The notes beneath the pieces are model-generated. The model worked only from the letters and a program-made list of their open reading frames with translations, ran no database searches and had not been told where the DNA came from. Of a stretch of DNA of 64,000 bases, positions 1-64,000 are shown in pieces. The translations under genes and the position numbers were made by a program. The DNA is from an uncultured Acidobacteriota bacterium (lineage in GTDB: Bacteria; Acidobacteriota; Vicinamibacteria; Vicinamibacterales; UBA2999), in contig CAVQMT010000044.1 in the NCBI GenBank assembly GCA_963713655.1, positions 6,686-70,685 on the forward strand, in the 5' to 3' direction. How positions within the stretch are numbered: the first letter of the stretch is position 1; each line of letters opens with the position of its first letter.

Positions 1-210
1 GAGCCGCTGACCAAGGGGCTGCCGCAGAAGGACTGCTACGTGAACGTGCTGCGCGACGCGATGGCCGTGGACACGCTGGACAAGTGCGGCATCTACTTCG
101 GCACCACCGGCGGCCAGGTCTACGCGTCGTCGGATGCGGGCGACAGCTGGGCGCCCATCGTCAGCACGCTGCCCGCGGTGCTGTCGGTCGAGGTCCAGAC
201 GCTGACGTGA
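1..210 (+). CDS. C-terminal fragment of a BNR/Asp-box beta-propeller-like protein (5' end outside window)
   Basis: Frame 1 is open from the window edge to TGA 208-210. The tail reads [25 protein letters not shown], which contains an S-x-D-x-G-x-W Asp-box motif. Confidence 0.5.
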
Positions 211-262
211 CGTTCACCAGGTCCGCGTCGAGCTGCCGTTTCACCTCCGCACGCTCGCACGC

Positions 263-514
263 GTGCCAGGGGAGATCACCGTGGACGTGGACGGCACCGT
301 GACCGTCGGCGCGGTGCTCGACGCCGTGGAGCGCCGCTACCCGGTGCTCCTCGGCACCATCCGCGACCACGACACGCTGAAACGCCGGGCGTTCCTGCGC
401 TTCTTTGCCTGTCAGGAAGACCTGTCGCTCGAGCCCGCCGACTTCGTGCTGCCCGATCGGGTTGCCAGCGGCGCCGAGCCGTTCCTGGTCGTCGGCGCCC
501 TGGCAGGAGGCTGA
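263..514 (+). CDS. MoaD/ThiS-family ubiquitin-like beta-grasp protein ending in Gly-Gly
   Basis: Intact 83-aa ORF from GTG 263 to TGA 512-514. The small size, the ITVDVDG...FLVVGALAGG pattern and the C-terminal GG are typical of sulfur-carrier-like proteins. Confidence 0.7.
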   Translation: MPGEITVDVDGTVTVGAVLDAVERRYPVLLGTIRDHDTLKRRAFLRFFACQEDLSLEPADFVLPDRVASGAEPFLVVGALAGG

Positions 515-534
515 TCGGAGGAGTATTCTTCAGG

Positions 535-46409: not shown

Positions 46410-46419
46410 TCGGCGCACG

Positions 46420-47463: not shown

Positions 47464-47858
47464 GCCGCGCTCACGAGCGACCGCGCCAGCGCCACCAGCT
47501 CGTCGAGCCAGAGCGGCTTGTAGCGCACCACCGCGCCGAGCGCGGTCAGCTCGCCGAGGGCGTCGGGTGTGGGGTGCAGGTCGCCGCTGACGATGGCGAT
47601 GGGCGTCCCGGCCAGATGGGGAATCTGCCGCAGCGACCGGGCGAGCCCGAGCGCGCGCGGCATCGAGGTTCTGATGTCGACCACGATCGCGTTGGGCGCG
47701 TGGGCCTGCGCCAGCCGCACGCCGTCTTCTGCCGTGAGCGCCGCCCACACTTCGTAGCCGTCCAGCCGCAGGGCCCTGGAACAGGAGTCCGCCACGGTCG
47801 GATCGTCGTTCACGATCAGAATACGGGCAGACGAACGCCCACCGGCACCAGGAGACAT
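47460..47858 (-). CDS. Stand-alone response-regulator receiver (CheY-like) domain
   Basis: Intact 132-aa ORF. It has the acidic pair in ILIVNDDP, the phospho-acceptor D in AIVVDI, S in IVSGD and K-P in RYKPL. Confidence 0.85.
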
Positions 47859-47868
47859 CGGGCCATTG

Positions 47869-47877
47869 TGCTATATT
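47869..47877 (+). promoter_or_regulatory. Extended -10-like element TGCTATATT
   Basis: TGnTATAnT pattern, with GGAGG plus TTG 47940 downstream. It is nearly identical in context to 49789-49797 (TGCTATAYTTTYCGCGCCT). Confidence 0.3.
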
Positions 47878-47939
47878 TTCCGCGCCTGCGGCCGGGCTTG
47901 GCCGCCGTCTGAGGCCCTTCCCCTGTACCGGAGGTTTTA

Positions 47940-49310
47940 TTGAGCCCCATCCTCGTGCGGCCCGTTCGCGAGCAGCTCGAGCACGATCGGGTGATCCGCC
48001 TGCTGCAGGCGAAGTACAAGAGGAAGTTCGACGTCGCCATCAATCCCGGGCACGAACAGACGGCTCCGGTCGGCCCGCCGCCGTCGCCCTGGTATCCCGA
48101 CCTGGTCCTGCACTCCACCGAGCGCGGCCGCCGCCTGGCCGGCATCGTCGAGGTGGAGACCGCCGAGTCGGTGAACAACCTCGAGGCGATGTCGCAGTGG
48201 GCGGCGTTTGCCAAGCAGCGGGCGGAGTTCCACCTCTACGTTCCGGCGTCGTCGATCGACGTGACCCGGCGGCTGTGCGCCGACATCGGCATCAACGTCA
48301 CCGAGATCTGGGCCTATCACGCGGTCGGCGACCAGCTGCGGTTCGTCCTGGTGCAGCGCGCCGCCGGCGCCCCGAAGCCGCCAAGCCGGCGCCCGAAGAC
48401 CGCCGGCCAAGCCGGCCAAGGCCGCCGCGGCCAAGCCGGCTGCCAGCGGCGCGAAGCGGCCGGCGAGCCGCCAAGCCGCCCGCGTCAAGGTCGCAGCGGC
48501 GAAGAACGGCCCGGCGAAGAACGGTGCCGCGAAGCAGCAGCGCCGCCAAGAACAGCGGCGCCGAAGGCCGTCCGTCAAGAAAGCGGCCGCCCAAGCAGGC
48601 CGGCGCCGCAAGAAGGCGGCGCCGAAGCCCGCCGTCCAAGCCAGCCAGGCGCCGCTAGCCCCGTGCCGTTCCTGAGGGTCATCCGCGACAAGCGCGGGTA
48701 CGAGACCACGTACCTGATGCACTGGTTCAGCGAGGGGGGCCGGCAGCGCTCGCGCATCCTGTACGCCTTTCGCGGCCCGTCGCTGGCACGCGTCGGACGG
48801 GTGCCGCTCGAACCTGCCGTCATGCGGCAGATCGCGGCCAGCTTTCCGGAGGTGGCGTTCGACTGGAAGGCCGTCGTCGCCGAACGTCAGGTGATCGAGT
48901 CGGCCCCCGAGATCAGGCGCCGGCGTCCACGCCGCGAGGACGAGCCCGTCCACGCCGCCGGGCCGAAGCCGCGCCGCCGCCGGTTGTGGCCGCAGCTCCT
49001 CCCCCCGAGCGGCCTCGGCAGATTCCCTCGGCGCTGCCGCCGGGCACCGACGAGGAGCGGATGGCATTTCTGGCCGAGTGGTATCCGCTGGTGCGCGAGC
49101 GGGTAGAGCGCCGCACCACCGACGAGGTGCGGCGGCAGGCGCTGCTGAGCCTGGCCGAACGCCTCGAACCCGGCGGCGTGGGGCGAGGGTGGCGCGTCGC
49201 CGGACCACTTCGCTGCGGCGGCTGAAGCGCTGGAACGCCTGGCGCGCGTGCTGACGCGCCGCCGCCGCCGCAGCAACCGGCCGCCGCAGGCGCCGAGCCC
49301 CGCGAGCTAG
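47940..49310 (+). CDS. Hypothetical protein: endonuclease-like N-domain, Lys/Ala/Pro-rich histone-H1-like middle and a conserved-looking C-domain; about 5 apparent frameshifts
   Basis: The N-domain contains YPDLVLHS...[10 protein letters not shown]. The middle region at 48360-48660 reads [20 protein letters not shown] / [14 protein letters not shown] / KKAAPKPAV in shifting frames. The C-domain begins [22 protein letters not shown]. It ends at TAG 49308-49310. Confidence 0.5.
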
Positions 49311-49778
49311 GAGTGCGGCACCGCGGCCGTGCGCGTGAACTCGCGCTCGATCGCGAGGAGCTTGTCGAGCCGCCGCCGGTGCCGGGCTTCGCCGGAGAAC
49401 GGGCGTTCAGGAACGCCGACACGATCTCGCTGGCCAGCGCGCCGCCCACGACGCGGGCGCCGAGGCACAGCACGTTCATGTCGTCGTGCTCCACCGCCTG
49501 GTGGGCCGTATAGGTGTCGTGGCAGACGGCGGCCCGAATGCCCGGCACCTTGTTCGCCGCAATCGACACGCCGGCGCCGCTGCCGCACACGACGATGCCG
49601 CGCTCAGCGCGCCCGCGGTCAGCGCCTCGGCGACGGCGCGGGCCGAATCGGGATAGTCCACGGGGTCCGTGGAATGGGTGCCCAGATTCTCGACCGTGTG
49701 GCCCAAACCCGCCAAAAAGGCCGCCAGCTCCTCCTTCAGGTCCAACCCCGCATGATCGGACGCCAGCGCCAGGTGCAT
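49307..49778 (-). CDS. rpiB: Ribose-5-phosphate isomerase B; 2 apparent frameshifts
   Basis: Contains [43 protein letters not shown] and [11 protein letters not shown]. Confidence 0.85.
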
Positions 49779-49788
49779 GCGGCAAGAC

Positions 49789-49797
49789 TGCTATACT
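49789..49797 (+). promoter_or_regulatory. Extended -10-like element TGCTATACT only 9 nt before ATG 49807 (possible leaderless transcript)
   Basis: Direct reading. There is no Shine-Dalgarno sequence between the element and the ATG. Confidence 0.3.
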
Positions 49798-49806
49798 TTC
49801 GCGCCT

Positions 49807-51118
49807 ATGCGCAACACGAACCGGTGCATCTTTGCTGGCTTGTTCGCATGCCTGCTGGCGGCGCTGATCACCACCGCCCATGGGCCGCTGGCCGCCCAGG
49901 CGCCACAGGCGCCGGCGCCGCAGCAGCCGGCGCCGGCGCCGGCCACGCCGCCGGCCGGGCAGACGCCGACGTTCCGCGTCAGCGTCGACCTGATCACCAC
50001 CGATCTCATCGTCCGCGACAGCCGCGACCAGTTCATCGCCGACCTGAAGCCGGGCGAGATCGAGGTCTACGAAGACGGCGTCAAGCAGGACATCGCGTCG
50101 CTGGAGCTGATTCACGGCGGGCGCGCCTACAGCGTGCAGGCCCCGCCGCCGGCGCCGGTGCAGGAAGGCATCATCCTGCCGCGCAACCGGCCCACCAACG
50201 ACACCGCCGGGCGCGTGTTCCTGCTGTTCATCGACGACCTGCACCTGGGCTTCCGCGAGACGCCGCGCACGCGCGACCTGCTGAAGCGGATGCTGAAGAG
50301 CCTGATTCACGACGGCGACATGTTCGGCATCGTGACCACGGGCACCTCGTCGATCTCGCAGCAGCTGACCTACGACCGCCAGGTGCTCGACTCGGCGATC
50401 TCGCGCATCACCGGCAACTCGCTGAAGCCGTCGGAAATCATCCAGGGCGGGCAGGGTCCGAACGGCCCGACCGAGCTGCGACACCGCGCGCACGTCGCGT
50501 TTTCGACGGCCTACGATCTGATGCGCAACCTCGAGAAGCTGCAGAACCGCCGCAAGGCCGTGCTCTACATCAGCAGCGGCTACGACTTCAATCCGTTCGA
50601 GCAGGGCCGCGTGGACGAGATGGCCAAGCGGATGCACGTGGAAAACGCCAACGAGCTGCAAAGCGATCCGTTCTTCCGCAACCAGCAGAGCCAGCAGATG
50701 CTGGCCGAATCGGATCTCGATTCGCGAGCTGGCCGAGCTGACGCGCGCCGCCAACCGCGCCAACGCCACCTTCTACACGATCGACCCGCGCGGGCTGGTG
50801 GCCGGGCAGGATCTCGACGAAGAGGTGCCGATCAAGGACTGGAACGAGTACATCCGCGAGACGCAGAACAGCCTGCGCGTGCTGGCCGAGGAAACCGGCG
50901 GCATCGCGGTGGTGAACCAGAACGACTTCGACAAGGCGCTCAAGCGCATCGACGCCGAGACCAGCGACTACTACGTCCTGGGCTACTACTCGAGCAACCC
51001 CGACCCGCTGAAGCGCACGCGCAAGATCGAGGTGAAGATCTTGAACCGGCCGAACGTCAATACGTTCTTCCGGTCGTCGTACTCGCTCCGTCCGCCTCCG
51101 CCGCCGGATCAGCGCTAG
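49807..51118 (+). CDS. Secreted VWA-domain protein of the acidobacterial VWFA-related type
   Basis: It has a signal peptide. Contains [61 protein letters not shown] and [11 protein letters not shown]...KIEVKI. One frame hop occurs near 50720. Confidence 0.8.
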
Positions 51119-51215
51119 TTGGTCGTTCGTCGTTTGTAGTTGGTCGTTCGGACTGCATTACGCGACCGAATCGCGACGTCCGAGCTAACGACCCACGACT
51201 ACGAGCCGCTACCAA
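51116..51215. repeat. Composite heptamer-phased repeat: TAGTTGG TCGTTCG TCGTTTG TAGTTGG TCGTTCG, then a central segment, then CTAACGA CCCACGA CTACGAG in inverse orientation
   Basis: Direct reading. The left arm is related to the reverse complement of the array at 21213-21247. It lies at the convergent VWA/LysR junction. Confidence 0.7.
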
Positions 51216-52125
51216 CCAGGCTTGACGGCGGCTTCCAGACGAGGCCGCAGTCCCTCCAGCACGCTCATCACTTCGCTCACCATCCGCGGCAGCCGGCTCA
51301 TCTTCGGATAGACCCAGCCGGTCTGGCGGAACAGCTGTGGCCGGCGATGCGGCTGCAGGCCAGCTGCTTGCTCTTGCACGTCGGCCGCGGCGGCCTGCCA
51401 CGGGATGATGCTGATGCCGAGGCCGCTGCGCACCATCGCCTTGATGATCTCGACGTTCTCGGTCTCCATCACGACGTGGGCTTCGACGCCCTGGCGGGTG
51501 AAGAACTCGTCCACCAGCCGGCGGGTGATCGATCCGGTCTCGAACAGGATGAACGGCTGCCTGGTTCAGGTCGGCGGGCGTGATCTGGCGGCGCTTGGCC
51601 AGCGGGTGGGTCGGGTAGGTCACGAGCAGCAGCTCCTCGGTGAGGATCGGCACCGACACCAGGTCGCTGGCCTCCACCGGCAGCGTGACCAGGCCCAGGT
51701 CGCCGACGCCCTGGCGCAGCATCGCAATCGAGCGCTCGGCGCTGCCGACGGTGACCTTCAGATCGAGGTTGGGGTGGATGCGCCGCAGCTCGGCGATGAG
51801 CGACGGGAAACACGTAGAGGCAGACCGTCATCCCGCCGACCAGGCGGATCGTGCCGCGCAGCGTTTCCTGCGTATCGTTGATGGCGGCCACCGTGTCCTG
51901 GAGATCCTGGAACACGCGGTGGCTCAGCTGCAGCAGTGCGGCCCCGGCCGGCGTGATCCGGACCCGCCGGCCGACGCGGTGGAAGACCGCCTCGCCGAGC
52001 TCGTCCTCGAGCAGCAGGATCTGGCGGCTGATCGCCGACTGCGAGACGTGCAGCTTGTTGCCGGCCGCGGTGAACGAGCCGGTGTCGGCGATGGCGCGGA
52101 TGATCTCGAGCTGCCGGAGATCCAT
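51209..52125 (-). CDS. LysR-family transcriptional regulator; about 3 apparent frameshifts
   Basis: MDLRQLEIIRAIADTGSFTAAGNKLHVSQSAISRQILLLEDELG is the HTH. It is followed by a periplasmic-binding-protein-like effector domain (LVTLPV, FILFETGS, GLGISIIP). Confidence 0.8.
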
Positions 52126-52150
52126 GCGCCAGGATACATCTCGAAACTGG

Positions 52151-52170
52151 ATGGGTTCAAATCGACCCAT
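52151..52170. promoter_or_regulatory. Dyad ATGGGT-N8-ACCCAT upstream of the LysR gene (possible LysR-type box)
   Basis: Direct reading. It lies 26 nt upstream of ATG 52125 on the minus strand. Confidence 0.3.
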
Positions 52171-52190
52171 GCGCCGGCGGCGTGTCGCCG

Positions 52191-53102
52191 TCAGGGCCGC
52201 GCGGCGATGGCGGCGGCGGTGCGGGCGATGGCTTCCTTGAGATAGGCCTCGTCCAGCTCGAAGCCCACGAAGTCCACGCCCAGCCCGACGCAGGCGAGCG
52301 CCGTCGAGCCCAGGCCCAGAAACGGATCGGCGACCAGCTTCACCCGCTCGCGCCCGTGCAGCCGGACGCACATCTCCGGCAGCTTGGCGGGAAAGGTGGC
52401 CGGGTGCGGCCGATCCTTGTCGCGGTTCTGGATGGTGTCGTAGGGGATGAACCAGGTGTTCCCCCGGCATCGGACCCCCGACCCCGCCGTCCGCCACCTC
52501 GACACGTTCGACTGATCCTGATATCGCACGCCAACCGACTCGCCGATCGAGCGGTGTCCGGCCGCCCGGCGTCAGGTGAAAGACAAATTCATGACAGTCG
52601 TGGACAAATCGTTGACTGTTGATCGGCTTGTAGTGGCCGACGGCCAGATCCTCGTCGAGCGCCGCGCGCGCGCCGGCCAGCGCCTTTTCGATGGCGATCG
52701 ACTTGATCCAGTGGATCGTGTTCTGCAGCTGCAGGTGGCTCGCGCGCGGCCTGCGCCACGTCCATCGCCAGCCAGGGGTCGGTGGGCTTCGACCCGACGT
52801 TCAGGAACAGGGAACCGTCCGCGGCCAGCACGCCGGGCCAGCGCCTGCACCCACGCCGAGGTCCACTTCAGATACTCCGGCCGGGGCATCGTGTCGCGGA
52901 ACGTGTTGTAGGCGATGCCCAGGTTGTAGGGCGGCGAGGTGACGGCGACGTCCACGCTGCCCGCGGGCCAGTTCGCGAGCAGATCGGTGCAGTCGCCGAG
53001 GAAAAAGCTGAACTGAGCCTTGCCCCGGCGCAGGATCTCGTAGGGGCGAGGCGGGCGGGACACCGTCGCGATTGTAGCGCCTGGCGCGCGGAGCGCGCCC
53101 AA
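52191..53102 (-). CDS. Beta-class N4-cytosine/N6-adenine DNA methyltransferase (SPPY motif IV before FxGxG motif I); at least 3 apparent frameshifts
   Basis: Contains [34 protein letters not shown] and [14 protein letters not shown]...GFELDEAY. An alternative start is GTG 53063, directly after a minus-strand TACAAT at 53076-53071. Confidence 0.8.
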
Positions 53103-53118
53103 GAGGCAAGCTGACCGA

Positions 53119-53325
53119 CTACGACGCCCGGGCGTCGATCAGGCTGGGAGATGCGGGCGCGGCCAGATTGGCGACCGTGTGATTGCGGCGATGCGAGTGG
53201 GTCTCGCAGGTCGATCCCTTTTCCTCGACGTAGGTCAGCTCTCGACCGCTGGCCAGATCGCGGTAGCGACCGACGACGCATCCGCACGTCAGGTTCTTGA
53301 ATCCCAGGAGCCGAACCAGACTCAT
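53119..53325 (-). CDS. Small Cys/His-rich hypothetical protein upstream of the methyltransferase
   Basis: MSLVRLLGFKNLTCGCVVGRYRDLASGRELTYVEEKGSTCETHSHRRNHTV carries a CxC...CxxHxH pattern. It lies 17 nt from the longest methyltransferase ORF. Confidence 0.4.
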   Translation of the reverse strand: MSLVRLLGFKNLTCGCVVGRYRDLASGRELTYVEEKGSTCETHSHRRNHTVANLAAPASPSLIDARAS

Positions 53326-53608
53326 TGCCCCGCCCTCCGTCGAGTGCACAAAGCAAATCTCGTGCCTGTGCGGCTAACGATCGGCGCGCATGCGCGTCGT
53401 GCGCGCCGCTGCCGAAACTCCGTTCCGAAAACACCAGCGGTGTGTGGATCAAGCCGCGCCCGGGAGCGGCCGGCCAGCCGCAGATCGCGGCATCGCCGAG
53501 GCCCCGTTCGTTGGATCGCGGTTCAACGCCTTGGACAGGGTCCGGTGACAGGATTTGTCGGGAGTTCTTGGATTCCAGCGAAGTCTCGCGGCCGCCGGAC
53601 CGCGGTAC

Positions 53609-54141
53609 TCACGGTTCTGTCGGCGGGTGTATCGCCTTGAACGCGTCGAGGTCGGCGCGCCGCTGGCGGCCGGCCACCATCCGCGCCCGCGCGAGCCGCA
53701 GCAGGAACGCCGCGTGCGCGGCGAAGAGCAGCACGATCTCGAGTGGCGTCGGCTGGGCCACGAAAGCCACGCCCAGGTTGACAAGAGACGCCACGGCGAA
53801 GACCACCGAGAACAACGGGTCCGCTCCGCTGCCGGGTAGCCCCGGGGAGGCGCGCATGGCGCTCGTCTCCCACGAGGCGCCGTCATCCCGACTCGTAGCT
53901 GACCTGAATGAACCGGCCGATGCGCTCGACGCCGACGTGCAAGGTCCACACAGCCTCGAATCCGCCGACCAGCACCGTCAGCGGGACCATCGCCAGCAGG
54001 GACAGGTCGCGAGTAGAGGCCCTGCATCGACGCCAGCGTCGCCCACGCCACCACGGCCGCTACGGCCACGACGACCCGGACCGTGCCTCGAGCGGCTATC
54101 GTCTGGCGCAGGGCGGCGAACTCGGCTTCGCGTATCGTCAC
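53609..54141 (-). CDS. Hypothetical multi-pass membrane protein; about 2 apparent frameshifts
   Basis: AAGGAG RBS plus GTG 54141. Hydrophobic segments are VVVAVAAVVAWATLA, LSLLAMVPLTVLVGGF and PLFSVVFAVASLVNLGVAFVA. Confidence 0.4.
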
Positions 54142-54242
54142 GGAAACAACTCCTTTACGGCTTTGGCCCTGTAGAAATTGCACGCTGTGGCTTGCGGCCA
54201 AACAATTTTCGCGTCGTCCCGGGCACGCGGGTATAGATTGTC

Positions 54243-54251
54243 TGCTAGAAT
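54243..54251 (+). promoter_or_regulatory. Extended -10-like element TGCTAGAAT upstream of the DD-carboxypeptidase
   Basis: TGnTAnAAT pattern in an AT-richer spacer, 55 nt before ATG 54306. Confidence 0.3.
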
Positions 54252-54305
54252 GCCGATACTCGTAACGGTCCTAGTCTCAAACATTTGCCGGTGATTTTCC
54301 CTGGG

Positions 54306-55384
54306 ATGCAGCTTGTGGAACTGACTAATGCCCCCCGTCGGATGCTCGCAGTGGTGTTTTGTCTCGCGGCCGCGCTCGCCGTGTCGACGGAACAGGCCCT
54401 GGAAGCGGCAACTCAGGCGAAGCCGCCGAAGCCGAGCTCGAGCTCGTCCCGGCTAACCTTGTCAAAGGCGCGTGCCACCAAGGCGCGCAGCCGCCGGCCC
54501 AGTCGTGCCCGCGCCCGCGCCGCGGCCAACGCCAAGGCGGTCCGCGAGGCCCAGGAGCCGCATTTCAAGTTCGACGAGACCGGCGCGCTGGTTCCGGACA
54601 TCCGCGCCGAAGCCGCCATCATCTATGACCCGCGCACCGGACAGGTGCTGTGGGAGCAGAACTCGCAGGTCGAGCGCTCGATTGCCAGCATCACGAAGGT
54701 GATGACGGCGGCGGTGGTGCTCGAGAACCCGGACGACCTCGACACCGAGGTCGTGATCCAGCGGTCGCGACGTCTATCGCGCCTCCACCACCTACATCCG
54801 TGCCGGCGACCGCGTGACCAAGGACGACCTGCTGCACCTGCTGCTGATCGGCTCCGACAACGCCGCGGCGCGCGTGCTGGCGCGCACGTCGTCGCTGGGC
54901 CCCGAAGGCTTCATCCGGCGGATGAACGAGAAGGCGGCCGAACTCGGGCTCGAGAGCACCGAGTACGTCGATCCCGCCGGGCATCTACAACGCCAACGTG
55001 TCGTCGGCCTACGACATGGCGCGGCTCATCAGCTTCGCGTCGGGCAACGAGCGCATGGCCGCGATCATGCGCACGCCGCAATACAGCATCGACGCCGGCC
55101 GGCGCCGCATCACCGTGTCATCGACCAATCAGCTGGTGAAGGCGGGCGACGTGGACGTGCAGGCGGGCAAGACCGGGTTCATCCGCAACGCCGGCTACTG
55201 CCTGGCGACGCTGCTGCGGCTGCCGCAGGGCGGTGGCGAAGTGGCGGTCGTGGTGCTGGGCGCCAAATCGAACGCGGGCCGCTTCTGGGAAACCCGTCAC
55301 CTGTTCAACTGGCTGTCGGCCAAGGCCGAAGATCTGCTGGGCAGCCGGCTCGAAGCCGCCGCCCCGCCTCCGCTCGCGCAGTAG
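54306..55384 (+). CDS. D-alanyl-D-alanine carboxypeptidase/endopeptidase (peptidase S11, PBP5/6-like); 2 apparent frameshifts
   Basis: It has a signal peptide. The motifs are SIASITKVMT (SxxK), IGSDNAAA (SxN) and AGKTGFI (KTG). Frame hops occur near 54765 and 54985. Confidence 0.8.
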
Positions 55385-55387
55385 CGG

Positions 55388-56260
55388 TTACCCCGCCAGA
55401 TACCCGCGCTGGATCGCTGCCGCGTCGAGCGGCAGCGTGGCCACGTTGTCGAAGGTCGGAAACACCGGCCGCGACGCGTGGCGCGAATCGAACGCCTTCA
55501 GGTACCGCCGGCACTGGTCGCAGCCGAACACCCGATATTGCCCGTCCGGCGTCGCGAACGACGACACGCGCGCGCGATCGTCGTTGCGGCAGAACGGGCA
55601 CGCCGTGCCGTCGAACCCCCACTGCAGGTGGCAATGGCTGCACACCAGGCGGCGCGCGCTGGCCGAGACGATCACCGCGAAATCCGGTTCGGCGCCGCAC
55701 AGCGGACAGTAGCCGTGTGTCCACATGCTGAGCTCGGGCCGGGGCTGAAACGCCTCGGCGCATCGGGAGAGGAACGGGCGCATCGCCAGCGCCAGCACCT
55801 GGTCCAGCGTTTCGTCTTCCGGCGTCGCGCTGGCGGCCGGCGCGCCGTTGTGGCGATCGGCGGTGCGGGCATACCAGGCGGCCGCCGCCGACAGCAGATC
55901 CTGGCTGCGGCCGAGCGCGGCGGCGCGCGCGTAATCGTCGGGGTCCAGGGCACCGCAGCGGTGCAGCACTTCGGCGGTCTGGCGGATCGTGAGCCGCAGG
56001 TCGCTGACGTCGATTGGGATCTGCTCGAAGCGCAGGACCGGACGCCCCTCGCGTACGTGCCGCGCGAAGCCCGGCCCGTCGATGTCGATCCACGGCAGCG
56101 ACACGCGCAAGCGGACGCGATGCTGCAGGTCGAGCAGCGCCAGGTGCAGGTCGGCGGCGTCGGCCAATTCGGGCTGGCTGGTGCGGAGCGCCCTGAGGTG
56201 GGACAGTTCGCCCGCTTCGTTGCGGCCAGACGGGTCGGAGCGCGTGGGCACCCTCGGCAT
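55388..56260 (-). CDS. fdhE: FdhE-like protein (formate dehydrogenase accessory protein family)
   Basis: Intact 290-aa ORF with four Cys pairs (CPLCG, CSHCH, CPFC, CDQC) in the spacing typical of FdhE. Confidence 0.75.
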   Translation of the reverse strand: MPRVPTRSDPSGRNEAGELSHLRALRTSQPELADAADLHLALLDLQHRVRLRVSLPWIDIDGPGFARHVREGRPVLRFEQIPIDVSDLRLTIRQTAEVLHRCGALDPDDYARAAALGRSQDLLSAAAAWYARTADRHNGAPAASATPEDETLDQVLALAMRPFLSRCAEAFQPRPELSMWTHGYCPLCGAEPDFAVIVSASARRLVCSHCHLQWGFDGTACPFCRNDDRARVSSFATPDGQYRVFGCDQCRRYLKAFDSRHASRPVFPTFDNVATLPLDAAAIQRGYLAG

Positions 56261-56299
56261 AATACAGCAGAGCTTGGAATTAATACAGCAGAGCTGGGA
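56259..56299. repeat. Two 21-nt direct repeats (ATAATACAGCAGAGCTTGGA / TTAATACAGCAGAGCTGGGA) in the fdhE-glgA divergent spacer
   Basis: AATACAGCAGAGCT occurs at 56261-56274 and 56282-56295, a period of 21 nt (3 x 7). Confidence 0.85.
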
Positions 56300-56333
56300 C
56301 TGGCCCGGCCCGACCCGCGGATAATAAGGTGGA

Positions 56334-57818
56334 TTGTCGATGCGGATCCTGATGGTGGCCTCGGAAGTCGCCCCGTTCGCGAAAACCGGGGGATTGGCCG
56401 ACGTTCTGGGGGCCCTGCCGCAGGCGCTGGCGCGCCTGGGGCACGATGTCGAGGTCGTGATGCCGCGTTACCGCGGGGTCACCGCCGGCGACCGCGTCGG
56501 GCGCATCACGGTGCGATTGGGGGACCGCCAGCTGGACGCCGGCGTCTTTGCGGTCTCCGCCGCCGGCGTGCGCATCGTCTTCATCGACCAGCCCAGCTAT
56601 TTCGACCGCGAGGGCATCTACGGCGAGGGCGGCCAGGACTATGCCGACAGCCCCGAGCGGTTCGCCTTTCTGGGCCATGCGGCGCTGCGCTGGTCGATGC
56701 TGACCGGCGCGCGCTACGACGTGGTGCACGGGCACGACTGGCAGGCGGGCGCGCTGGCGGCCCTCATCGGTACACCCGGCGCCGCGCACGCGCTGGCGCG
56801 CGTGCCGATGGTGTTCACCATCCACAACCTGGCGTACCAAGGGCTGTTCGACCGGTCGTGGCTGCCGGGACTGGGGTTCAGTCCGACGCTGATGAGCGTG
56901 GACGGGATGGAGTACTGGAACCAGGCCAGCTACCTCAAGGCCGGCATCATGTTCAGCCGGGTCATCACCACGGTCAGCCCGCGGTATGCGGCCGAAATCC
57001 AGACCCCGGAATACGGGTTCGGGTTCGACGGCATCCTGCGCAGCCGGGCCGACCGTCTGGTCGGCATTTTGAACGGGATCGACTACGATCAATGGAACCC
57101 CGCCAGCGACCCGCATCTGCCTGTCCCGTTCGACGCGGGAAACCTGTCGGGAAAGGTGGCCGCCAAGCGACACGCCCTGGAATCGTTCGGCATCCAACCG
57201 AATGAGGCCGCCATGGGCCGGCCGCTGGTCGGCCTGGTGTCGCGGCTGGTGGACCAGAAGGGGTTTGATCTCGTGGCGGACGCGTCCGAAGAGCTGCTGG
57301 GCCTGGATGCTACGTTCGTGCTGCTGGGGACCGGCGACGCGCGCTACGAGACCCTGTGGCACGACCTGTCAGCCGCCCACCCCGACCGTGTCGGCGCGCG
57401 CCTCGGGTTCGACGAGGGGCTGGCGCACGTCATCGAGGGCGGCAGCGACATGTTCCTGATGCCGTCGCGATTCGAGCCGTGCGGCCTCAACCAGATGTAC
57501 AGCCTGCGCTACGGCACGGTGCCGGTGGTGCGGGCCACCGGCGGGCTGGCCGACACGGTGCGCGACTTCGATCCGCAGACGGGCGAGGGCACCGGATTCA
57601 CCTTCGAGGAGTACTCGTCGACGGCGATGGTCGGTGCGCTGACGCGCGCGATCGACACCTATCGGCGCGCCGACGTGTGGCGCGCCATGCAGCTGGCCGG
57701 GATGCGCGAGGATCACTCGTGGACCACGTCGGCGCACAAATACGTGTCCGTCTACGAATGGGCGCAGGAACTGCAGCACCAACGCGGCGGGCCGGCAGGG
57801 AAGGCCGTGCGCGCGTAA
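56334..57818 (+). CDS. glgA: Glycogen synthase (ADP-glucose type)
   Basis: Intact 494-aa ORF. Contains [36 protein letters not shown] and [13 protein letters not shown]. Confidence 0.9.
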
Positions 57819-57839
57819 CGGAACAGGGGGAGACCACAG

Positions 57840-58163
57840 ATGGCATCCGACAAAGTGAAGACGGTCACCGACGGCAACTTCGACAGCGAAACCAGCAAGG
57901 GCCTGGTGCTCGTGGACTTCTGGGCGCCCTGGTGCGGACCCTGCCGCCGCATGGCGCCGACGGTCGACGAGCTGGCGTCGGATTACGAAGGGCGCGCCAC
58001 GGTTGCAAAAATGAACGTGGACGACAATCCGGACGTGCCGAGCCGCTACGCGATTCGCGGCATCCCGACGCTGCTGCTCTTCAAGGACGGGCAGCTGGCC
58101 GAGACGATCGTCGGGCTGCAGTCGAAGGAGGCCATCGTCGCCACGCTCGAAAGGCACCTTTGA
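57840..58163 (+). CDS. trxA: Thioredoxin
   Basis: Intact 107-aa [15 protein letters not shown] is the active site. Confidence 0.9.
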
Positions 58164-59143
58164 TGTCGCACGGTCGCGTCGTCATCATCGGCTCGGGGCC
58201 GGCGGGTCTGACCGCGGCGCTGTACACCGCGCGCGCCAACCTGAAGCCCACGCTGGTGGAGGGCCTCGAGGCCGGCGGGCAGCTGATGCTGACGACGATG
58301 GTGGAGAACTGGCCGGGGTTTCGCGACGGCATCATGGGGCCCGACCTCATGACCGAGATGCGGGCTCAGGCCGAGCGGTTCGGCGCCGAAATCCTGCAGA
58401 GCACCGTGACCAGGGTGGACTTGAGCCGCCGGCCGTTCACCATCGGCCTGGGTGAGAAGCGCGAGCTTCAGGCCGACGCGCTGATCATCGCCACCGGCGC
58501 GTCGGCGAGGTGGCTCGACATCGGCGCCGACCGGCGGCTGTCGGGCCACGGCGTGTCCACGTGCGCCACCTGCGACGGCTACTTCTTCCGCGGCAAGCCG
58601 ATCGCGGTCGTCGGCGGCGGCGACTCGGCGATGGAGGAAGCGATCTACCTGACCCGCTTCGCCTCGTCGGTGGCGGTGATCCACCGCCGCGACTCGTTGC
58701 GGGCGTCGAAGATCATGCAGGACAAGGCGTTCGCCAACCCGAAGATCACCTTCGTGTGGGACTCGGAGGTGGCCGACATCACCGCGTCGGACAAGGGCGA
58801 GGTGACCGGACTGGTCGTCCGCAACCTGAAGACGGACGCGCAGCACACGCTGCCCGTGGACGGCGTGTTCATCGCCATTGGCCACACGCCGAACACGTCG
58901 CTGGTCGCGGGCCAGATCGAGCTCGACGCCAACGGCTACATCGTCACCCACGACGGCTCGCGGACCAGCGTGCCCGGCGTCTTCGCGGCCGGCGACGTGC
59001 AGGACCACATCTACCGGCAGGCGATCACCGCTGCCGGCTCGGGCTGCATGGCGGCAATCGACGCCGAGCGGTATCTGGAAAACCTCGCTGTTCCGTCGAG
59101 CGTGCACGAGACCGCCGATGGTGTCGGCGCCACGGGGCGCTGA
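58163..59143 (+). CDS. trxB: Thioredoxin-disulfide reductase
   Basis: The ATG overlaps the trxA stop (TGATG). Contains [14 protein letters not shown], the redox pair in [16 protein letters not shown] and FAAGDV. Confidence 0.9.
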
Positions 59144-59307
59144 GCCCTCCAGCCGTCCGTCACCAGCCGCGCCAGGCCCGCGGTTCGGGCGCCGGCGATC
59201 TGTTCCGTCTCGGTCTCGCGGTTGCCGCCGCGGGCACCATCGTCGCGGGCTCTCCGATCGTCAACACGATTCGCCAGGCGCTGCTCGTAGCCTGGCCCGC
59301 GGGCTAC

Positions 59308-60321
59308 GTGCCGGTGCTGGCCGGCGTCGTGGCCGTGACCGGCCTGGCCCTCGTCGTCTTCACCCTGCGCTCGATGCGCGACCGGTCGTGGCCGCGGCTG
59401 GCTGCGCTGGCGATGGCTGTCGCCCTTGCCGTCGGATCCGGCGCGGCCCTGCGAACCGGCGTCGCCAACGTGGACGCGGTCGAGGCCTTTCACTTCGTCG
59501 AGTACAGCGCGCTGACGCTGCTGTTTGCCTGGGCCTTCACCCAGCCGGCCGGAGCATCGGCCTGGTTGTGGGCGGCGTATGCGGCGCTGTTCGTCGGCGC
59601 GGTGGACGAGTGGACGCAGTGGTTCGTGCCTGGCCGCACCGGTGAGATTCGCGACGTCGCCATCAACGGCATCGCGATTACCTGCGGGCTGCTGCTCGCC
59701 CGGGCGCTCGACCTGGGCGCCGGTCCGCGGCGCGAGGGCCGCCGGTGGGCCCTGGGCGCCGGTGCCGCCGCGGTCGTGCTGGTGGTGGCGGGCTTCTTCG
59801 CCAGCGCGCACCTGGGCTACGAGCTTCGCGATGATGAAGCCGGCACCTTCATGTCCTACCACTCGCGCGAGGGGCTGGCGGCCCTGTCAGCGGAGCACGC
59901 GCGGGCGTGGGGCGACCGCGGCCCTGCGCCGCAGGGGCAGTTCTCCCGCGAGGATCAATATCTCAGCGAAGCGCTGTGGCACGTGCGGCGGCGCAACGAG
60001 GCGATGGAGGACGGCGATCTCGCCGCGGCGTGGCGCGAGAACCGGATCCTGGAGAAGTACTTCGCGCCCGTGCTGCGAATCAGGCGGCCCGACCGCTCGC
60101 CCCTCCACGCCTTGTCACCCGAACAGGCGGCGGGCCTGGCGGCCGGCCGCGACGCCGCCGGCGCGGGGTCGAGCGACGCGAACCCGATTGCGATCTACAC
60201 CTGGCGGCCCGCGGCGTTCTGGACGGTCGTGCTGGCTCTCGCGGCGGCCCTGGTCTTGCTGACAACACGGGTGGGAGCGGGCCTGGCCACCCGGCGAGCC
60301 CCGGAGGACGTCCATGCGTGA
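59308..60321 (+). CDS. VanZ-like multi-pass membrane protein with a soluble C-terminal region
   Basis: EAFHFVEYSALTLLFAWAF...DEWTQWFVPGRTGEIRDVAINGIAI is a VanZ-like core. The ORF is open upstream to 59140, but the first canonical start is GTG 59308. Confidence 0.55.
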   Translation: MPVLAGVVAVTGLALVVFTLRSMRDRSWPRLAALAMAVALAVGSGAALRTGVANVDAVEAFHFVEYSALTLLFAWAFTQPAGASAWLWAAYAALFVGAVDEWTQWFVPGRTGEIRDVAINGIAITCGLLLARALDLGAGPRREGRRWALGAGAAAVVLVVAGFFASAHLGYELRDDEAGTFMSYHSREGLAALSAEHARAWGDRGPAPQGQFSREDQYLSEALWHVRRRNEAMEDGDLAAAWRENRILEKYFAPVLRIRRPDRSPLHALSPEQAAGLAAGRDAAGAGSSDANPIAIYTWRPAAFWTVVLALAAALVLLTTRVGAGLATRRAPEDVHA

Positions 60322-60898
60322 CACGATTGCGGCACTCGAGGCCGAGTTCTGGCGTTACAAGGCACTTGGCGATTCGGCGCTGGCACAGCTGGACGACGAT
60401 CTGGTGTCGCGCGTGCCGGCGGGCGAGAGCAACTCCGTGGCGGTGATCGTGTGGCACCTGGCGGGCAACTTCGAGTCCCGCTTCACCGACTTCCTGGACG
60501 CTGACGGCGAGAAGCCCTGGCGCGACCGCGACGCCGAGTTCGAGGCGCGCACCGTCACGCAGCCGGTGACGGTGGCGCGCTGGCAGCAGGGCTGGGCGGT
60601 GGTGCTACCGGCGCTGGCCGGCCTGCGCGACATCGACCTGCCGCGCCACGTCACCGTGCGGGGGCAGAAGCTGACCGTGCTCGAGGCCGTGAGCCGCGCG
60701 CTGGCGCACACGGCATATCACGTCGGACAGATCGTGTTCCTGGGGAAGATGTGGCGCGACGAGCAGTGGAAGTGCCTGAGCATTCCGCGCGGCGCGTCGA
60801 AGACCTACAACGCCAACCCCCGCAGCGAGAAGCCGTCGGCCCACGCCGCGCACCTTCAGTCGATCCAGCCGCCGCCGACGACGACGTCGTCGTCGTAG
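60314..60898 (+). CDS. DinB-superfamily protein (DUF1572-like)
   Basis: Intact 194-aa ORF. The ATG overlaps the upstream stop. It shows a four-helix DinB pattern with conserved His residues (VWHLAGN, LAHTAYHVGQIVFLGK). Confidence 0.7.
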   Translation: MRDTIAALEAEFWRYKALGDSALAQLDDDLVSRVPAGESNSVAVIVWHLAGNFESRFTDFLDADGEKPWRDRDAEFEARTVTQPVTVARWQQGWAVVLPALAGLRDIDLPRHVTVRGQKLTVLEAVSRALAHTAYHVGQIVFLGKMWRDEQWKCLSIPRGASKTYNANPRSEKPSAHAAHLQSIQPPPTTTSSS

Positions 60899-61914
60899 AA
60901 CACGGCCGCCTGGCCCGGCGTGACCGCGGCCTGCGGCGCGTCGAACTCCACCTCGGCGCGGCCGCCGTCGAGCGCGCGCACGCGGGCCGGCGCCGCGCGG
61001 TGGCGGTGCCGGATCTGCGCCGTCACCGGCGTCCAGCCAGCGGGGCGGACGCCGCTCGTCCACGTGACGCCGGATGCCGTGAACCCGGTGCGATCCAGGG
61101 CGGCGCGTGGTCCGACGGTCACCGTGGCGCTGTCCGCCTCGATCCGCAGCACGTAGAGCGGCACCGGTGAGGCCACGCCGAGTCCCTTGCGCTGGCCGAC
61201 GGTGAAGCGGTGGACGCCGCCGTGCGCGCCGAGCGTGTTCCCGGCGGTGTCGGCGATGCGGCCGGGGCGCGTGCCGTCGCCGGCCTTCGCCTCCACGAAC
61301 GCCGCGTAGTCGCCGCTCGGCACGAAGCAGATCTCCTGGCTGTCGGGCTTGTCGGCCACGGCCAGGCCCAGGCGCCGCGCGTGATCGCGGACCTCGCCCT
61401 TGGTCAGGGGCCCGACAGGAAACGACGCCTGCGCCAGCTGCTCCTGCGTCAGCGAGAAGAGGAAATAGGACTGATCCTTCTCCCGGTCCGCGCCGCGGCG
61501 CAACAGCCAGCGTCCGTCCGCCGCCCGGTCCACGCGCGCGTAGTGGCCGGTGGCGACGTGGGCGGCGCCCAGCCCGGTGGCGCGCTCGAGCAGCGTCGAG
61601 AACTTGAGGTCGCTGTTGCAGTGGGCGCAGGGCAGGGGAGTGCGGCCCGATGTGTACTCCTGCACGAAATTCGACACCACCGCCTGCTCGAACTGCCGCT
61701 CGAAGTTCAGGATGTAGTGCGGGACGCCGAGGGCGGCGGCCACTCGACGGGCATCGTGCAGGTCGTCGAGGGTGCAGCAGGTGCCGAAGCTCTCGCCGTT
61801 GCGCTGATCGTAGAGCTGCATCGACACGCCCACCACGTCGTGGCCGGCCTCGGCCAGCAGGGCCGCGGCCACCGACGAGTCCACGCCGCCCGACATCGCG
61901 ACCACGACGCGCAT
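60856..61914 (-). CDS. mnmA: tRNA 2-thiouridine(34) synthase
   Basis: Intact ORF. MRVVVAMSGGVDSSVAA is the PP-loop. Also contains PCAHCNSDLKF, ATGHYAR, KDQSYFL and QEICF. Confidence 0.9.
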   Translation of the reverse strand: MRVVVAMSGGVDSSVAAALLAEAGHDVVGVSMQLYDQRNGESFGTCCTLDDLHDARRVAAALGVPHYILNFERQFEQAVVSNFVQEYTSGRTPLPCAHCNSDLKFSTLLERATGLGAAHVATGHYARVDRAADGRWLLRRGADREKDQSYFLFSLTQEQLAQASFPVGPLTKGEVRDHARRLGLAVADKPDSQEICFVPSGDYAAFVEAKAGDGTRPGRIADTAGNTLGAHGGVHRFTVGQRKGLGVASPVPLYVLRIEADSATVTVGPRAALDRTGFTASGVTWTSGVRPAGWTPVTAQIRHRHRAAPARVRALDGGRAEVEFDAPQAAVTPGQAAVFYDDDVVVGGGWID

Positions 61915-62689
61915 GGCTATGATCGGTACTCCGGAAATCGCGACCGCCAGCCTTTGAGGGCGCGGGAAGGGCATACTGCCGGCGCCTCCCGTATTCCGCA
62001 CCCCGACTTGCCGGCGTGCTTTGCACGCTGGTCTCTCGTCCCTCCCGCCCTTCCGCTGCCACCGCAACTAGTCCGTAATTCCACCGAGAACCATCGTGAC
62101 AATGCACCGTCCGGGTGGTTACCGACCGTTCGCGAGTGTCTGTCTTGCGCGCTACGCGCGCAACATCCGCAGCTGTTGACGACCAAGTCCGGCGTGTCGG
62201 GCGTCTACCTCGATAGCATTTGGGGACTTGTGAGACCGTCACCGTATCCGCCGCGTGGCCGCATTCGCCGGTGGAGTCGAGCGTTCGATGGCTCCCTCTC
62301 GTCGGACTTATGGCTCCCGCCGGAGGCTACGCTCACAACATTTGGTGAGCCATTCCTAGCCTCCGTGGCGGTCTCCGGTCCACTCGGGCCGATTCCTGCG
62401 ATTTTCTGCGATTATCTCGTCCGCGTTGTCCGGCCCACCCCTTGCTGCCTTCGCAGCAAGTCCTCCGGAGAGCGGTTTTCCGCGATATCCGGGATCAGAC
62501 CCGGGGGGCTGTCCACGGAACCGGCGAGATTCAGCGCGAGCCGCATCGTTATTTAAGTACTCTGGGCGAATTGCTGCTTGTAGATAATGAGAGACTGAAC
62601 CAACTTGGTCAGGGAACCGCACGCTCGGTCGCGGTAAGCACAACGCGCGAGCGTCATTTCCTCGCCGGAAAAGGAACTGGGGAAGCACC
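61915..62689. other. 775-nt unassigned, visibly lower-GC, hairpin-rich non-coding region (candidate ncRNA or long structured leader)
   Basis: No frame gives a credible protein. A nested hairpin spans 62316-62371 (GGAGGCTA..TAGCCTCC enclosing GCTCAC..GTGAGC). A perfect 8-bp hairpin, CTTGCTGC-CTTC-GCAGCAAG, lies at 62441-62460. Confidence 0.5.
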
Positions 62690-64000
62690 ATGTCGAAGAG
62701 AGAAGACGAGAGAGAAGATACCCGTGATCCGTTTGATCCCTCGGCGCAGGTGCCGTCGGTTCCGACCGGCCTGGACCGCCGAAAGTTCATCATGCGCAGC
62801 GCCGTGATCTCGGCAGCGGCAGTGATGAACGGCTGCGCGCGATCGGAGACCGAACAGAAGGCCCCGCCGCCAGTAGCCGAATCCGCAGCGGCCGATGCGC
62901 CCTCAGTCCCGTTGGCTGCCGACCTGAACGTGGTGATGAAGGCAAAGGGGCCGGTGTTGACGACCGCGGACGAGTTCTACAAGGTGGGACCTGGCCCTTC
63001 CAGTTCGCACACGATTGGTCCGATGCGCATCACCTACGATTTCTACCAGCGAGCGGCCAAACTGCCGGCCGACAAACTCGCCACGGCGACGAAGCTTCAG
63101 GTGAACTTGTTCGGAAGCCTCAGCGCGACAGGCAAGGGACACGGCACGGAACGAGCCGCGCTCGCAGGGCTCGTCGGGAAAGAACCGGCAACAGTCGACC
63201 CGAAGTTTCTGGACGGCTTGCGAGACAAGCCTGATCAGGTGTTCCCGGTGAAGCTGGGCAACAAGTCAATCAATGTGAGCCTCAAGGACGTCATCTACGA
63301 TGCGACCAAGGGCGACTTCAAGCACCCGAACACGATGACGGTCAAGCTCCTCGCCGGCAACGATGTGTTGCTCGAGCAGGAGTACTACTCGGTGGGCGGC
63401 GGATTCATCGAGTGGAAGGGGTATACGCCCCCGAAGAAGAACCCGCCGAAGTACCCGTTCGCGACGATGAAGGAACTGCGGGCCCACGCCGACAACAACA
63501 AGATCACGATCGCCAAGGTCATGCTTGCCAACGAGATGTCGATCGCGGGCAGGTCGGAAGAGGAGGTCAATGCCTTCATCGACAAGATCATCAACGCGAT
63601 GGTCGCGACGGTGAAATCGGGGCTGTCGATGCCGGAGGATGACGTGCTGCCCGGCCCGATCAAGCTGCACAGCAAGGCAGCGTCGGTTTACAAGCGCGCC
63701 AGGGACGACAAGTTCGAATCGGACCGCGGCATCGCCGGTCTGTCGGCGTTCGCGCTGGCGGCATCCGAAGAGAACGGGCGCGGACACCTCGTCATCACCG
63801 CTCCGACCGGCGGTTCAGCCGGTGTCATGCCGTCGCTGGTCTATGGGCTGATGGAGGTCCGAAAAGTCGACCGGCAGAAGGTCCGTGACGGCATGCTCGC
63901 GGCTGGGCGATCGGCTACCTCTGCAAGCACCATGCGACGCTGTCTGCGGCCGAGGGCGGCTGCCAGGCAGAGATCGGCGTGGCGTCGGCGATGGCTGCAG
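62690..64000 (+). CDS. sdaA: Iron-sulfur L-serine dehydratase (single-chain) with an N-terminal twin-arginine signal; runs off the window
   Basis: ATG 62690. LDRRKFIMRSAVISAAAVMNGC is a Tat-like leader. Also contains FYKVGPGPSSSHTIGPM, LFGSLSATGKGHGT, YYSVGGGFI and ITAPTGGSAGVMP. One frame hop occurs near 63903 (IGYLCKHHATLSAAEGGCQAEIGVASAMAA). Confidence 0.85.
   Translation, partial: MSKREDEREDTRDPFDPSAQVPSVPTGLDRRKFIMRSAVISAAAVMNGCARSETEQKAPPPVAESAAADAPSVPLAADLNVVMKAKGPVLTTADEFYKVGPGPSSSHTIGPMRITYDFYQRAAKLPADKLATATKLQVNLFGSLSATGKGHGTERAALAGLVGKEPATVDPKFLDGLRDKPDQVFPVKLGNKSINVSLKDVIYDATKGDFKHPNTMTVKLLAGNDVLLEQEYYSVGGGFIEWKGYTPPKKNPPKYPFATMKELRAHADNNKITIAKVMLANEMSIAGRSEEEVNAFIDKIINAMVATVKSGLSMPEDDVLPGPIKLHSKAASVYKRARDDKFESDRGIAGLSAFALAASEENGRGHLVITAPTGGSAGVMPSLVYGLMEVRKVDRQKVRDGMLAAGRSATSASTMRRCLRPRAAARQRSAWRRRWLQ

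Follow-up and report, generated by a model that had tools for sequence, protein, structure and literature searches.

The broken reading frames in this stretch of acidobacterial DNA are very probably single-base insertion errors of a long-read metagenome assembly and not a sign of gene decay, and in the organism itself the genes are almost certainly unbroken. The window, by which we mean the whole stretch of 64,000 nucleotides analysed (positions 1..64000, 70% G+C), holds about 56 genes, 97 frame hops within genes and at least 167 small indels that are private to it. The initial annotation had already favoured consensus indel errors over decay. This is borne out by three properties of the indels and their surroundings: they are private to one assembly, they are missing in short-read contigs, and the genes that carry them have kept the third-position bias of their substitutions.

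Frame hops were located with a six-frame codon-usage dynamic program that was trained on the window itself, without an outside reference, and from which the open reading frame at 972-4838 was excluded. This 1288-aa frame was rejected as a gene, being a wrong-frame artefact of high G+C. The program placed 106 frame switches across the window, 97 of them sited more than 30 nt inside genes, which corresponds to 1.7 per kb of coding sequence and agrees with the earlier manual estimate that most genes need frame hopping and that some 80-100 hops are present. When applied to Illumina (short-read) contigs of similar G+C, it returned only 0.05-0.3 hops per kb, so that about 8-10 of the 97 window hops are expected to be false; sister long-read contigs gave 0.5-1.3 per kb. 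Where comparators were available, 74 of 88 hops fell within 60 nt of a window-private indel defined by alignment, against a random expectation of 21.5. One-base skips are the commoner kind of hop, their ratio to two-base skips being 77:20 in the window and between 7:1 and 19:3 in the sister long-read contigs. A Nanopore MAG, L015, was considered as a parallel case because it shows 2 hops per kb, and was set aside, since its hops bunch in one 3.4-kb stretch that may reflect an odd gene.

Comparison with relatives of the same species, 92-99% identical, was possible over 56.5 kb of the window. About 20 of these relatives are short-read contigs; the others are six stretches of sister long-read contigs, which come from three ENA assemblies and are syntenic and 93.6-97% identical to the window. 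Over this span 167 small indels are private to the window, 142 insertions and 25 deletions (p = 5e-21 for the excess); 145 of the 167 are 1 nt long and 126 are +1. The short-read contigs, in which the genes are intact, carry none of them. Over the 7.1 kb that align with short-read contig L101, 54 insertions and 10 deletions are seen in the window, and compared to short-read contigs L184-L190 the window has 17 private insertions and 3 private deletions, while short-read contig L087 is without 3 window insertions. For the most affected region no same-strain short-read contig was found, the best being 92.5-96% identical, and the absence of the indels there thus holds at the level of the species and not of the strain. 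In three- and four-way alignments, each sister long-read contig shows its own insertion-biased private indels, with genes split in different places. With the reading frame used for polarisation, it is the allele with the extra base that breaks the frame, both in the window and in its sisters. Among GTDB species genomes, the 592-aa protein encoded at 32583-34358 had no match above 66% identity; the best matches, in Vicinamibacterales MAGs, hint at the taxonomy but supply no reference. Exact-protein look-ups with the DinB-like protein, the response regulator, the pirin and the PQQ dehydrogenase returned no record, and the accessions of the ENA assemblies were found in no paper.

Among the affected genes, the M3 oligopeptidase (42066..43963, forward strand) differs from the intact Illumina copy in L101 by 12 insertions and 1 deletion; its stitched translation matches Peptidase_M3 over 2-453/457 and retains the HELGH motif. 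On the reverse strand, hemY and hemE (44975..47457; Amino_oxidase and URO-D, respectively) together carry 26 private small indels, of which 5 lie in hemE, where 3 hops are needed to obtain a protein matching URO-D over 13-345/346. The ATP-grasp gene (39894..40868, reverse strand; Dala_Dala_lig_C) has 7 private +1 insertions, and rpiB (49307..49781, reverse strand) has two 1-nt deletions, at 49399 and 49611, that require 2 hops, and its stitched protein matches LacAB_rpiB over 2-138/138. Each stitched translation contains one near-full-length Pfam domain, and internal in-frame stops were found in none of the stitched proteins. The statements that the translated pieces keep their catalytic motifs without in-frame stops, and that normally essential genes are affected, thus hold, the latter with 5 indels in hemE, 21 in hemY and 2 in rpiB. 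We rate the per-gene hop counts as equal to the earlier ones or higher: the M3 peptidase, thought to need about 9 hops, has 11 dynamic-program hops and 13 indels; hemY, put at about 6, has 8 hops; the ATP-grasp gene, put at about 5, has 4 dynamic-program hops and 7 indels. The window also contains an N6/N4 DNA methyltransferase gene; no tRNA genes and no Rfam matches were found within it.

Frame shifts in so many conserved genes could in principle be genuine, in a lineage undergoing mass pseudogenisation, with the clean stretches being recent recombination imports from intact relatives. The mosaic phylogeny of the window, which stands apart at 38-55 kb and falls within the sister clade at 55-62 kb, is what such a history would produce, and the search yielded no same-strain high-accuracy sequence in the hot zone that would speak directly to it. 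The pattern of substitutions, however, makes this explanation very improbable. Relative to L101, window substitutions are divided over codon positions 1/2/3 as 89/54/271, a split that cannot be told apart from that of the sisters (p = 0.70) and departs strongly from an even one (p = 2e-43). Third positions account for a fraction of 0.65 in the window and 0.68 in intact relatives. The implied neutral fraction of window substitutions is 8% (95% CI -15 to 25%). Because the third-position bias is kept, the genes must have been under selection during divergence, which is incompatible with real decay at 9 indels per kb. Of the 414 substitutions in these 7 kb no more than about 105 could be neutral, while the stretch has 64 indels, which gives a ratio of about 0.6 indel or more to each neutral substitution. 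In bacterial pseudogenes this ratio is roughly 0.05-0.15, far lower, and decay in bacteria is biased to deletions, opposite to the 142:25 excess of insertions found here. The indels are also almost all 1 nt long, the stitched pieces are free of stops, essential genes are among those hit, and independent decay would be required in every sister long-read contig. A real and very recent insertion-biased mutational burst in a soil Vicinamibacterales lineage, for example due to a faulty polymerase or repair system and with 30-34 and 55-62 kb imported, is equally hard to credit.

That the cell itself decodes the shifts, by programmed ribosomal frameshifting, transcriptional slippage or some other recoding, has still less to recommend it, and we consider it extremely improbable. 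Frames do continue on either side of the shifts and catalytic motifs are retained, as recoding would demand. Yet no slippery or homopolymer context is common to the sites, extension of homopolymers being depleted, relatives that are 92-99% identical lack the shifts at the sites compared, and a single gene can contain as many as 13 of them. Assembly error thus remains by far the best explanation, and the question becomes why such errors are distributed so unevenly.

The unevenness is large. Most of the window has 1-2 private indels per kb, but there are 5-13 per kb at 38-50 kb and, between 55 and 62 kb, only about 0.15 per kb, a range of more than 30-fold along one 64-kb contig. Counted in 2-kb units of coding sequence, the hops are overdispersed (chi2 63.8, df 27, p = 8e-5), and the second-longest stretch without a hop is too long for chance (p = 5e-4), so that the recount rejects a uniform spread, as the initial annotation had suspected. 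The hot zone (38000..55000) has 3.5-13 private indels per kb and also the densest private substitutions. The main cold zone (55000..61950) encodes the fdhE-like gene, glgA, trxA, trxB, the VanZ-like gene, the DinB-like gene and mnmA, and has a single coding indel in about 6.9 kb: a +1 G at 59194 (forward strand) in the VanZ-like gene, by which the first 25 codons are shifted compared to Illumina contig L004. The earlier description of 55.4-62.0 kb as free of hops is therefore nearly right, this one insertion being the exception. A second cold zone (29800..34850), with a paralogous gene pair, DUF6152 and the 592-aa MBL-fold protein, matches ten Illumina contigs at 98-99% identity and contains no coding frameshift. 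The one hop previously assigned to 30.4-34.3 kb was not confirmed; relative to Illumina, this part of the window has two intergenic +1 insertions, at 31251 and 32570.

Density of private indels follows density of private substitutions. Over 32 one-kb bins the two are correlated with rho 0.84 (p = 2e-9) in the window, and the same relation is found in the sister contig L098 (rho 0.72), with its hot stretches in other places: at 34.08-34.85 kb L098 has ten +1 insertions and the window two, and at 38-44 kb the window has 45 private indels and L098 only 5. In the main cold zone, only 1-7 private substitutions per kb are left when the window is compared with the sister contigs. About 23 window-private substitutions per kb remain at 55-57 kb when the comparison is with Illumina contigs, and the association of clean with typical sequence is accordingly seen mainly when the sister long-read contigs serve as the reference. 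The spread had been called hard to reconcile with a uniform error process. It is indeed non-uniform, and still compatible with an error process, because the hot stretches of the sisters lie elsewhere, the sites share no motif, and the indels track private SNPs.

This coupling leads us to lean towards sequencing depth and the pooling of strains as the cause of the unevenness. The contig consensus of a Vicinamibacterales-like soil acidobacterium very probably carries uncorrected, insertion-biased single-base errors, with a local error rate that is presumably set by the number of strain-specific reads available for each stretch. At 38-55 kb, where the strain is most unlike its co-occurring relatives, only its own few reads would contribute and up to about 1% of extra bases could persist. 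At 55-62 kb and around 30-34 kb, where strains are nearly alike, their reads would pool and give a clean consensus resembling the common population. One feature is odd for a simple low-depth consensus: substitution errors are apparently negligible while insertions reach about 1%.

A different origin of the unevenness, which we regard as possible though rather unlikely, is partial correction. Short-read or reference-guided polishing could have removed errors only where reads or references were mappable and left divergent stretches raw, and polishing would also have pulled SNPs towards the dominant strain in the corrected stretches. Like read pooling, it predicts that indels are scarce where private SNPs are scarce, and that clean sequence lies close to that of the common population. 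Against it, sister contigs that follow the same naming scheme have 0.7-1.3 insertion errors per kb where the window is clean, unlike polished data, and in the clean stretch at 55-57 kb the window still differs from the Illumina contigs by private substitutions at about 2% of positions.

The third option, which is improbable, is that errors are driven by sequence, with a methylation motif, G+C or local context prompting insertions by the basecaller or polisher. Tabulation of the indel contexts, as recommended before, revealed two deviations from expectation. Extra bases extend a same-base neighbour in 28% of cases where 51% is expected (p = 1e-8), and they create CpG in 42% of cases where 24% is expected. 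Creation of CpG or GpC is thus enriched and is a point in favour of sequence-driven insertion, as is the methyltransferase gene of the window. The same holds for identical +1 insertions in independent assemblies. The window and L098 share an extra C at 34899 (forward strand) that L099 and the Illumina scaffold L100 do not have; another extra C, at 31251 (forward strand) and 17 nt before the DUF6152 start codon, recurs in the window, L098 and L099 but in none of ten Illumina contigs; and identical +1 insertions at 30606 and 27054 are common to L098 and L099. These few sites point to a small site-specific error component. They are a handful among hundreds, however, and none of the 4- to 6-mers at insertion sites was enriched after correction (best p = 4e-4, 959 tests). 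The same sequence has different hot zones in different contigs, and G+C content was rejected as the driver because hot and cold zones are equal in G+C. A mixed-strain consensus that writes both SNP alleles in tandem was considered as well and is unsupported; insertions were found by third positions in 37 of 48 cases, with 32 expected (p ~0.08, an estimate).

Biologically the interest of the window is low, since it is an assembly artefact and the genes are almost certainly intact. Its use is as a quality warning. Annotation of the contig will yield dozens of false pseudogenes and truncated proteins, among them hemE, hemY, rpiB, the M3 peptidase and arginase, and because the error rate shifts more than 30-fold within 64 kb, a genome-wide mean quality figure would be misleading. 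The coupling of insertion errors to strain-private SNP density, as well as the recurrence of identical insertions across independent assemblies, may aid polishing and filtering of long-read assemblies from strain-rich soils.

Of the known systems with which the window can be compared, three concern broken frames in general. Programmed frameshifting in prfB, dnaX and IS3-family transposases also joins two frames in one protein, but it uses a conserved slippery site and a conserved shift, neither of which is seen in the window, where a gene has up to 13 shifts. Mycobacterium leprae and recent obligate symbionts resemble the window in having many frameshifted genes, here including normally essential ones. 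The window differs from such decay in its bias to insertions, almost exclusively of 1 nt, in the lack of nonsense codons in stitched pieces, in its purifying selection and intact close relatives, and in its 70% G+C. The third are the indel errors of long-read assemblies, which reportedly split predicted proteins (a description said to be that of Watson and Warr in 2019) and whose effect on protein length is measured by IDEEL-type tests. As in those cases, conserved genes are broken by 1-nt, assembly-private indels that are absent from short reads of the same species, and independent assemblies break at different places. Errors concentrated in homopolymer runs are the usual signature of Nanopore or HiFi data, typical though not defining. 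The window departs from it, with insertions outside homopolymers instead of homopolymer-length deletions and a local rate of about 1% that varies more than 30-fold on one contig. As the spectrum is not that of textbook homopolymer-length error, the sequencing platform cannot be named.

The contig names, of the form contig_NNNNN, follow the output style of Flye. The same naming is found in a Nanopore-only soil MAG study that used Flye and one round of Medaka and reported that microdiversity limits MAG recovery from soils (PMC12313526). Both the naming style and the soil habitat are shared with these assemblies, a resemblance that is no proof that the window originates from that study or platform. 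As in strain mixtures, indels in the window follow strain-private SNP density and its clean stretches resemble the common population, from which we infer, going beyond the result of PMC12313526, that microdiversity is linked to insertion errors.

Frame switches (hops) in the window were called without a reference by a dynamic program that walks codon by codon, scores each step against codon usage learned from the window itself, disallows in-frame stops and charges a penalty for each skip of one or two bases. It returned 106 switches, 97 of which lie more than 30 nt within a gene. This corresponds to 1.7 per kb of coding sequence and bears out the 80-100 hops of the initial annotation. The same program gave 0.05-0.3 per kb on Illumina contigs of similar G+C and 0.5-1.3 per kb on sister long-read contigs, which are syntenic contigs of the same species. 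From the Illumina rate, about 8-10 of the 97 hops are expected to be false; among the false calls are one at the trxA/trxB overlap (58158) and another within the intact ORF of the PQQ dehydrogenase. One-base skips, each pointing to a surplus base in the DNA, number 77, compared with 20 two-base skips. Once stitched, ten genes of the most broken class each yielded a single near-full-length Pfam match, including Peptidase_M3 (2-453 of 457), URO-D (13-345 of 346), Arginase (3-279 of 280), GSDH (1-332 of 332), LacAB_rpiB (2-138 of 138) and N6_N4_Mtase (1-219 of 221). The example genes with broken frames had been chosen correctly, and the reported absence of stops within translated pieces extends to the stitched ones. 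A separate cluster of 33 model-called hops in 3.4 kb, with few elsewhere, was seen at 16857-20288 of a contig from a GTDB Nanopore MAG (MFD01275.bin.2.72, 5.97 Mb); it reflects either locally concentrated errors, as in the window, or a gene of odd composition.

The G+C content of the window is 70%, at which long spurious ORFs arise in every frame. The longest ORF (1288 aa, 972-4838, forward strand) was rejected as a gene because it lies in the wrong frame by both third-position G+C and the codon model, which instead support real genes at 590-2866 and 2947-4404 in another frame. At such G+C, ORF length is a misleading guide. No tRNA genes or Rfam matches were found across the window. A cluster at 30429-34361 comprises two paralogous secreted proteins (270 and 309 aa, about 77% nucleotide identity) around a DUF6152 gene, followed by a 592-aa accessory protein with a C-terminal metallo-beta-lactamase fold. 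The latter has at least 575 relatives in a GTDB scan, those listed being mostly from Acidobacteriota MAGs with some labelled Gammaproteobacteria (44-66% identity); among the matches listed, the closest GTDB species genomes are Vicinamibacterales MAGs at no more than 66% identity. A perfect 8-nt inverted repeat at 35903-35919 (GTGTCGGT-C-ACCGACAC), directly 5' of the ATG of a PadR-family regulator gene (35924-36253), is likely an autoregulatory operator. Intergenic heptamers are repeated in tandem at 21208-21243, 17009-17035, 44984-45016 and about 51140-51200 (GACCAAC x5, AATTCAC x4, GCCTGGA x4.7), and the one near 51.15-51.2 kb is of variable length across all four long-read contigs.

The species is well represented in other public data. 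An identical thioredoxin is encoded by many public contigs that form two groups, one in ENA assemblies ERZ25039547, ERZ25039469 and ERZ25039531 with Flye-style names (contig_NNNNN), the other of short contigs of Illumina type (named k141_, NODE_ or JGI Ga); NCBI as well as ENA contain the exact PadR protein, which makes it probable that the window belongs to a deposited MAG. A search for literature citing the three ENA accessions found none. Sister long-read stretches, found via small intact proteins, cover 0.25-20.6, 26-45.8 and 47.8-62.1 kb and are syntenic with the window at 93.6-97% identity, and short-read contigs from look-ups and one JGI scan cover 28.8-36.3, 40.8-47.9 and 50-62 kb. Synteny with three sisters (L001, L002, L003) breaks off shortly upstream of mnmA, near 62.13 kb (in the sisters, beyond about 14300), after which these three and the window each continue differently. 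There the G+C of the window falls to 62%, and a gene carries a GPSSSHTIGPMR motif which we take to be L-serine-dehydratase-like; 62032-62133 is matched, inverted, by a 100-nt piece of L001. Either a junction that varies between strains or a join made in assembly could account for the end of synteny (62030-64000).

Alignment to relatives showed that the indels are private to the window: none is carried by the short-read contigs within their coverage. Over the comparable 56.5 kb there are 167 private small indels, comprising 142 insertions (126 of exactly one base) and 25 deletions (p = 5e-21 for the bias). In multiple alignments each long-read contig has its own set; at 47.8-62.1 kb, private insertions and deletions number 31 and 8 in the window, and 14 and 1-8 in each of the three sisters. 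When pairwise indels were polarised by the frame-keeping allele, the broken allele nearly always carried the additional base, in window and sisters alike. Over 7.1 kb shared with the Illumina contig L101, in which all five genes are intact, the window differs by 54 insertions and 10 deletions. Comparison with seven short-read contigs at 50-57.5 kb gives 17 private insertions and 3 private deletions, and comparison with a further Illumina contig gives three extra bases in the window (29660, 29776, 30195), two of which coincide with called hops. The gene at 47967-49254 has a repeat region rich in Lys, Ala and Pro where the window carries ten small private insertions (48360-48630) totalling 15 nt, a multiple of three; genuine variation of the repeat or noise in the alignment, instead of errors, may explain some of these.

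The substitutions settle the choice between errors and gene decay. The window has 414 coding substitutions relative to L101, counted in the intact frames of that contig, and they fall 89/54/271 on codon positions 1/2/3; this spread cannot be told apart from that of the sister contigs (p = 0.70) and departs strongly from evenness (p = 2e-43). No more than about a quarter could be free of selection, whereas decay that collected 64 indels in the same 7 kb should have added several hundred unselected substitutions. Decay should also produce deletions of mixed size and nonsense codons; instead, the indels are nearly all single bases and insertion-biased, and no stops interrupt the stitched pieces. 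Decay would also have to have arisen independently in every sister long-read contig. Because of the substitution pattern, the one-base insertion bias, the absence of stops and the private sets of the sisters, the indels of the window are very probably assembly errors, as the initial annotation had argued. The broken frames are not a biological feature.

The claim that hops are unevenly distributed also held on recount, since counts in 2-kb bins of coding sequence show overdispersion (chi2 63.8, df 27, p = 8e-5) and the rate is not uniform. By alignment, window-private small indels number 1-2 per kb at 0-38 kb, 5-13 at 38-50 kb, 3.5-4 at 50-54 kb and 0-1.5 at 54-62 kb. Two details needed correction: 55.4-62.0 kb, described as free of hops, contains one coding error (+1 G at 59194) that puts the opening 25 codons of the VanZ-like gene out of frame, and 30.4-34.3 kb, credited with one hop, has zero coding frameshifts and two intergenic +1 insertions relative to Illumina contigs (31251, 32570). 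Neither G+C, which showed no association with hot or cold stretches, nor a motif, none at insertion sites surviving correction, was retained as a driver. Hot stretches are contig-specific: at 34.08-34.85 kb there are ten +1 insertions in the sister L098 against two in the window, and at 38-44 kb five private indels against 45. Private indels per kb correlate with private substitutions per kb (rho 0.84, p = 2e-9 in the window; rho 0.72 in L098), and these substitutions are mostly real since they are third-position-biased. Set against its sisters, the window behaves as an outlier across 38-55 kb and as an ordinary clade member across 55-62 kb. Relative to Illumina contigs, its private substitutions still amount to about 23 per kb at 55-57 kb, so the link between clean and typical sequence holds mainly relative to sister long-read contigs. 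At 38991 the window lacks about 462 bp present in L098 (13069-13530) and in the sister L099, where they are part of a 188-aa gene; the gene next after this gap (39.0-39.7 kb) is unusually divergent.

In outline, a non-uniform error process explains the unevenness. We lean towards strain-specific read support as its cause. In a strain-rich sample, a stretch that differs from neighbour strains would be backed by its own few reads only and errors would stay, while a near-identical stretch would pool the reads of several strains into a clean, typical consensus. The main rival, which seems rather unlikely, is partial polishing that was effective only where reads or references mapped. The value of the case is as a warning for annotation and for quality averages taken per contig.

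A few insertions recur identically. The +1 at 31251 is common to the window, L098 and L099, that at 34899 to the window and L098, and those at window-equivalent positions 30606 and 27054 to L098 and L099; as estimated from the counts, chance alone would give about 0.06 coincidences of the kind seen in two assemblies at 34899, 30606 and 27054. Those at 34899, 31251 and 30606 are absent from Illumina contigs wherever covered, and no Illumina contig covers 27054. They could be errors that recur at particular sites, or real alleles that strains have in common.

The contig naming agrees with Flye. A large Nanopore-only soil study, which reports that microdiversity in soils is high, used Flye with one round of Medaka (PMC12313526); the likeness to that pipeline is a resemblance only and no proof of origin. 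Substitution errors seem negligible. C or G make up 73% of the extra bases, in line with base composition. Many of these bases create CpG (42%, compared with 24% expected) or adjoin GpC, and no 4- to 6-mer is enriched at insertion sites after correction. Homopolymer context, which the initial annotation had suggested tabulating, is depleted: 28% of extra bases extend a same-base neighbour against 51% expected. This spectrum differs from the usual homopolymer signature.
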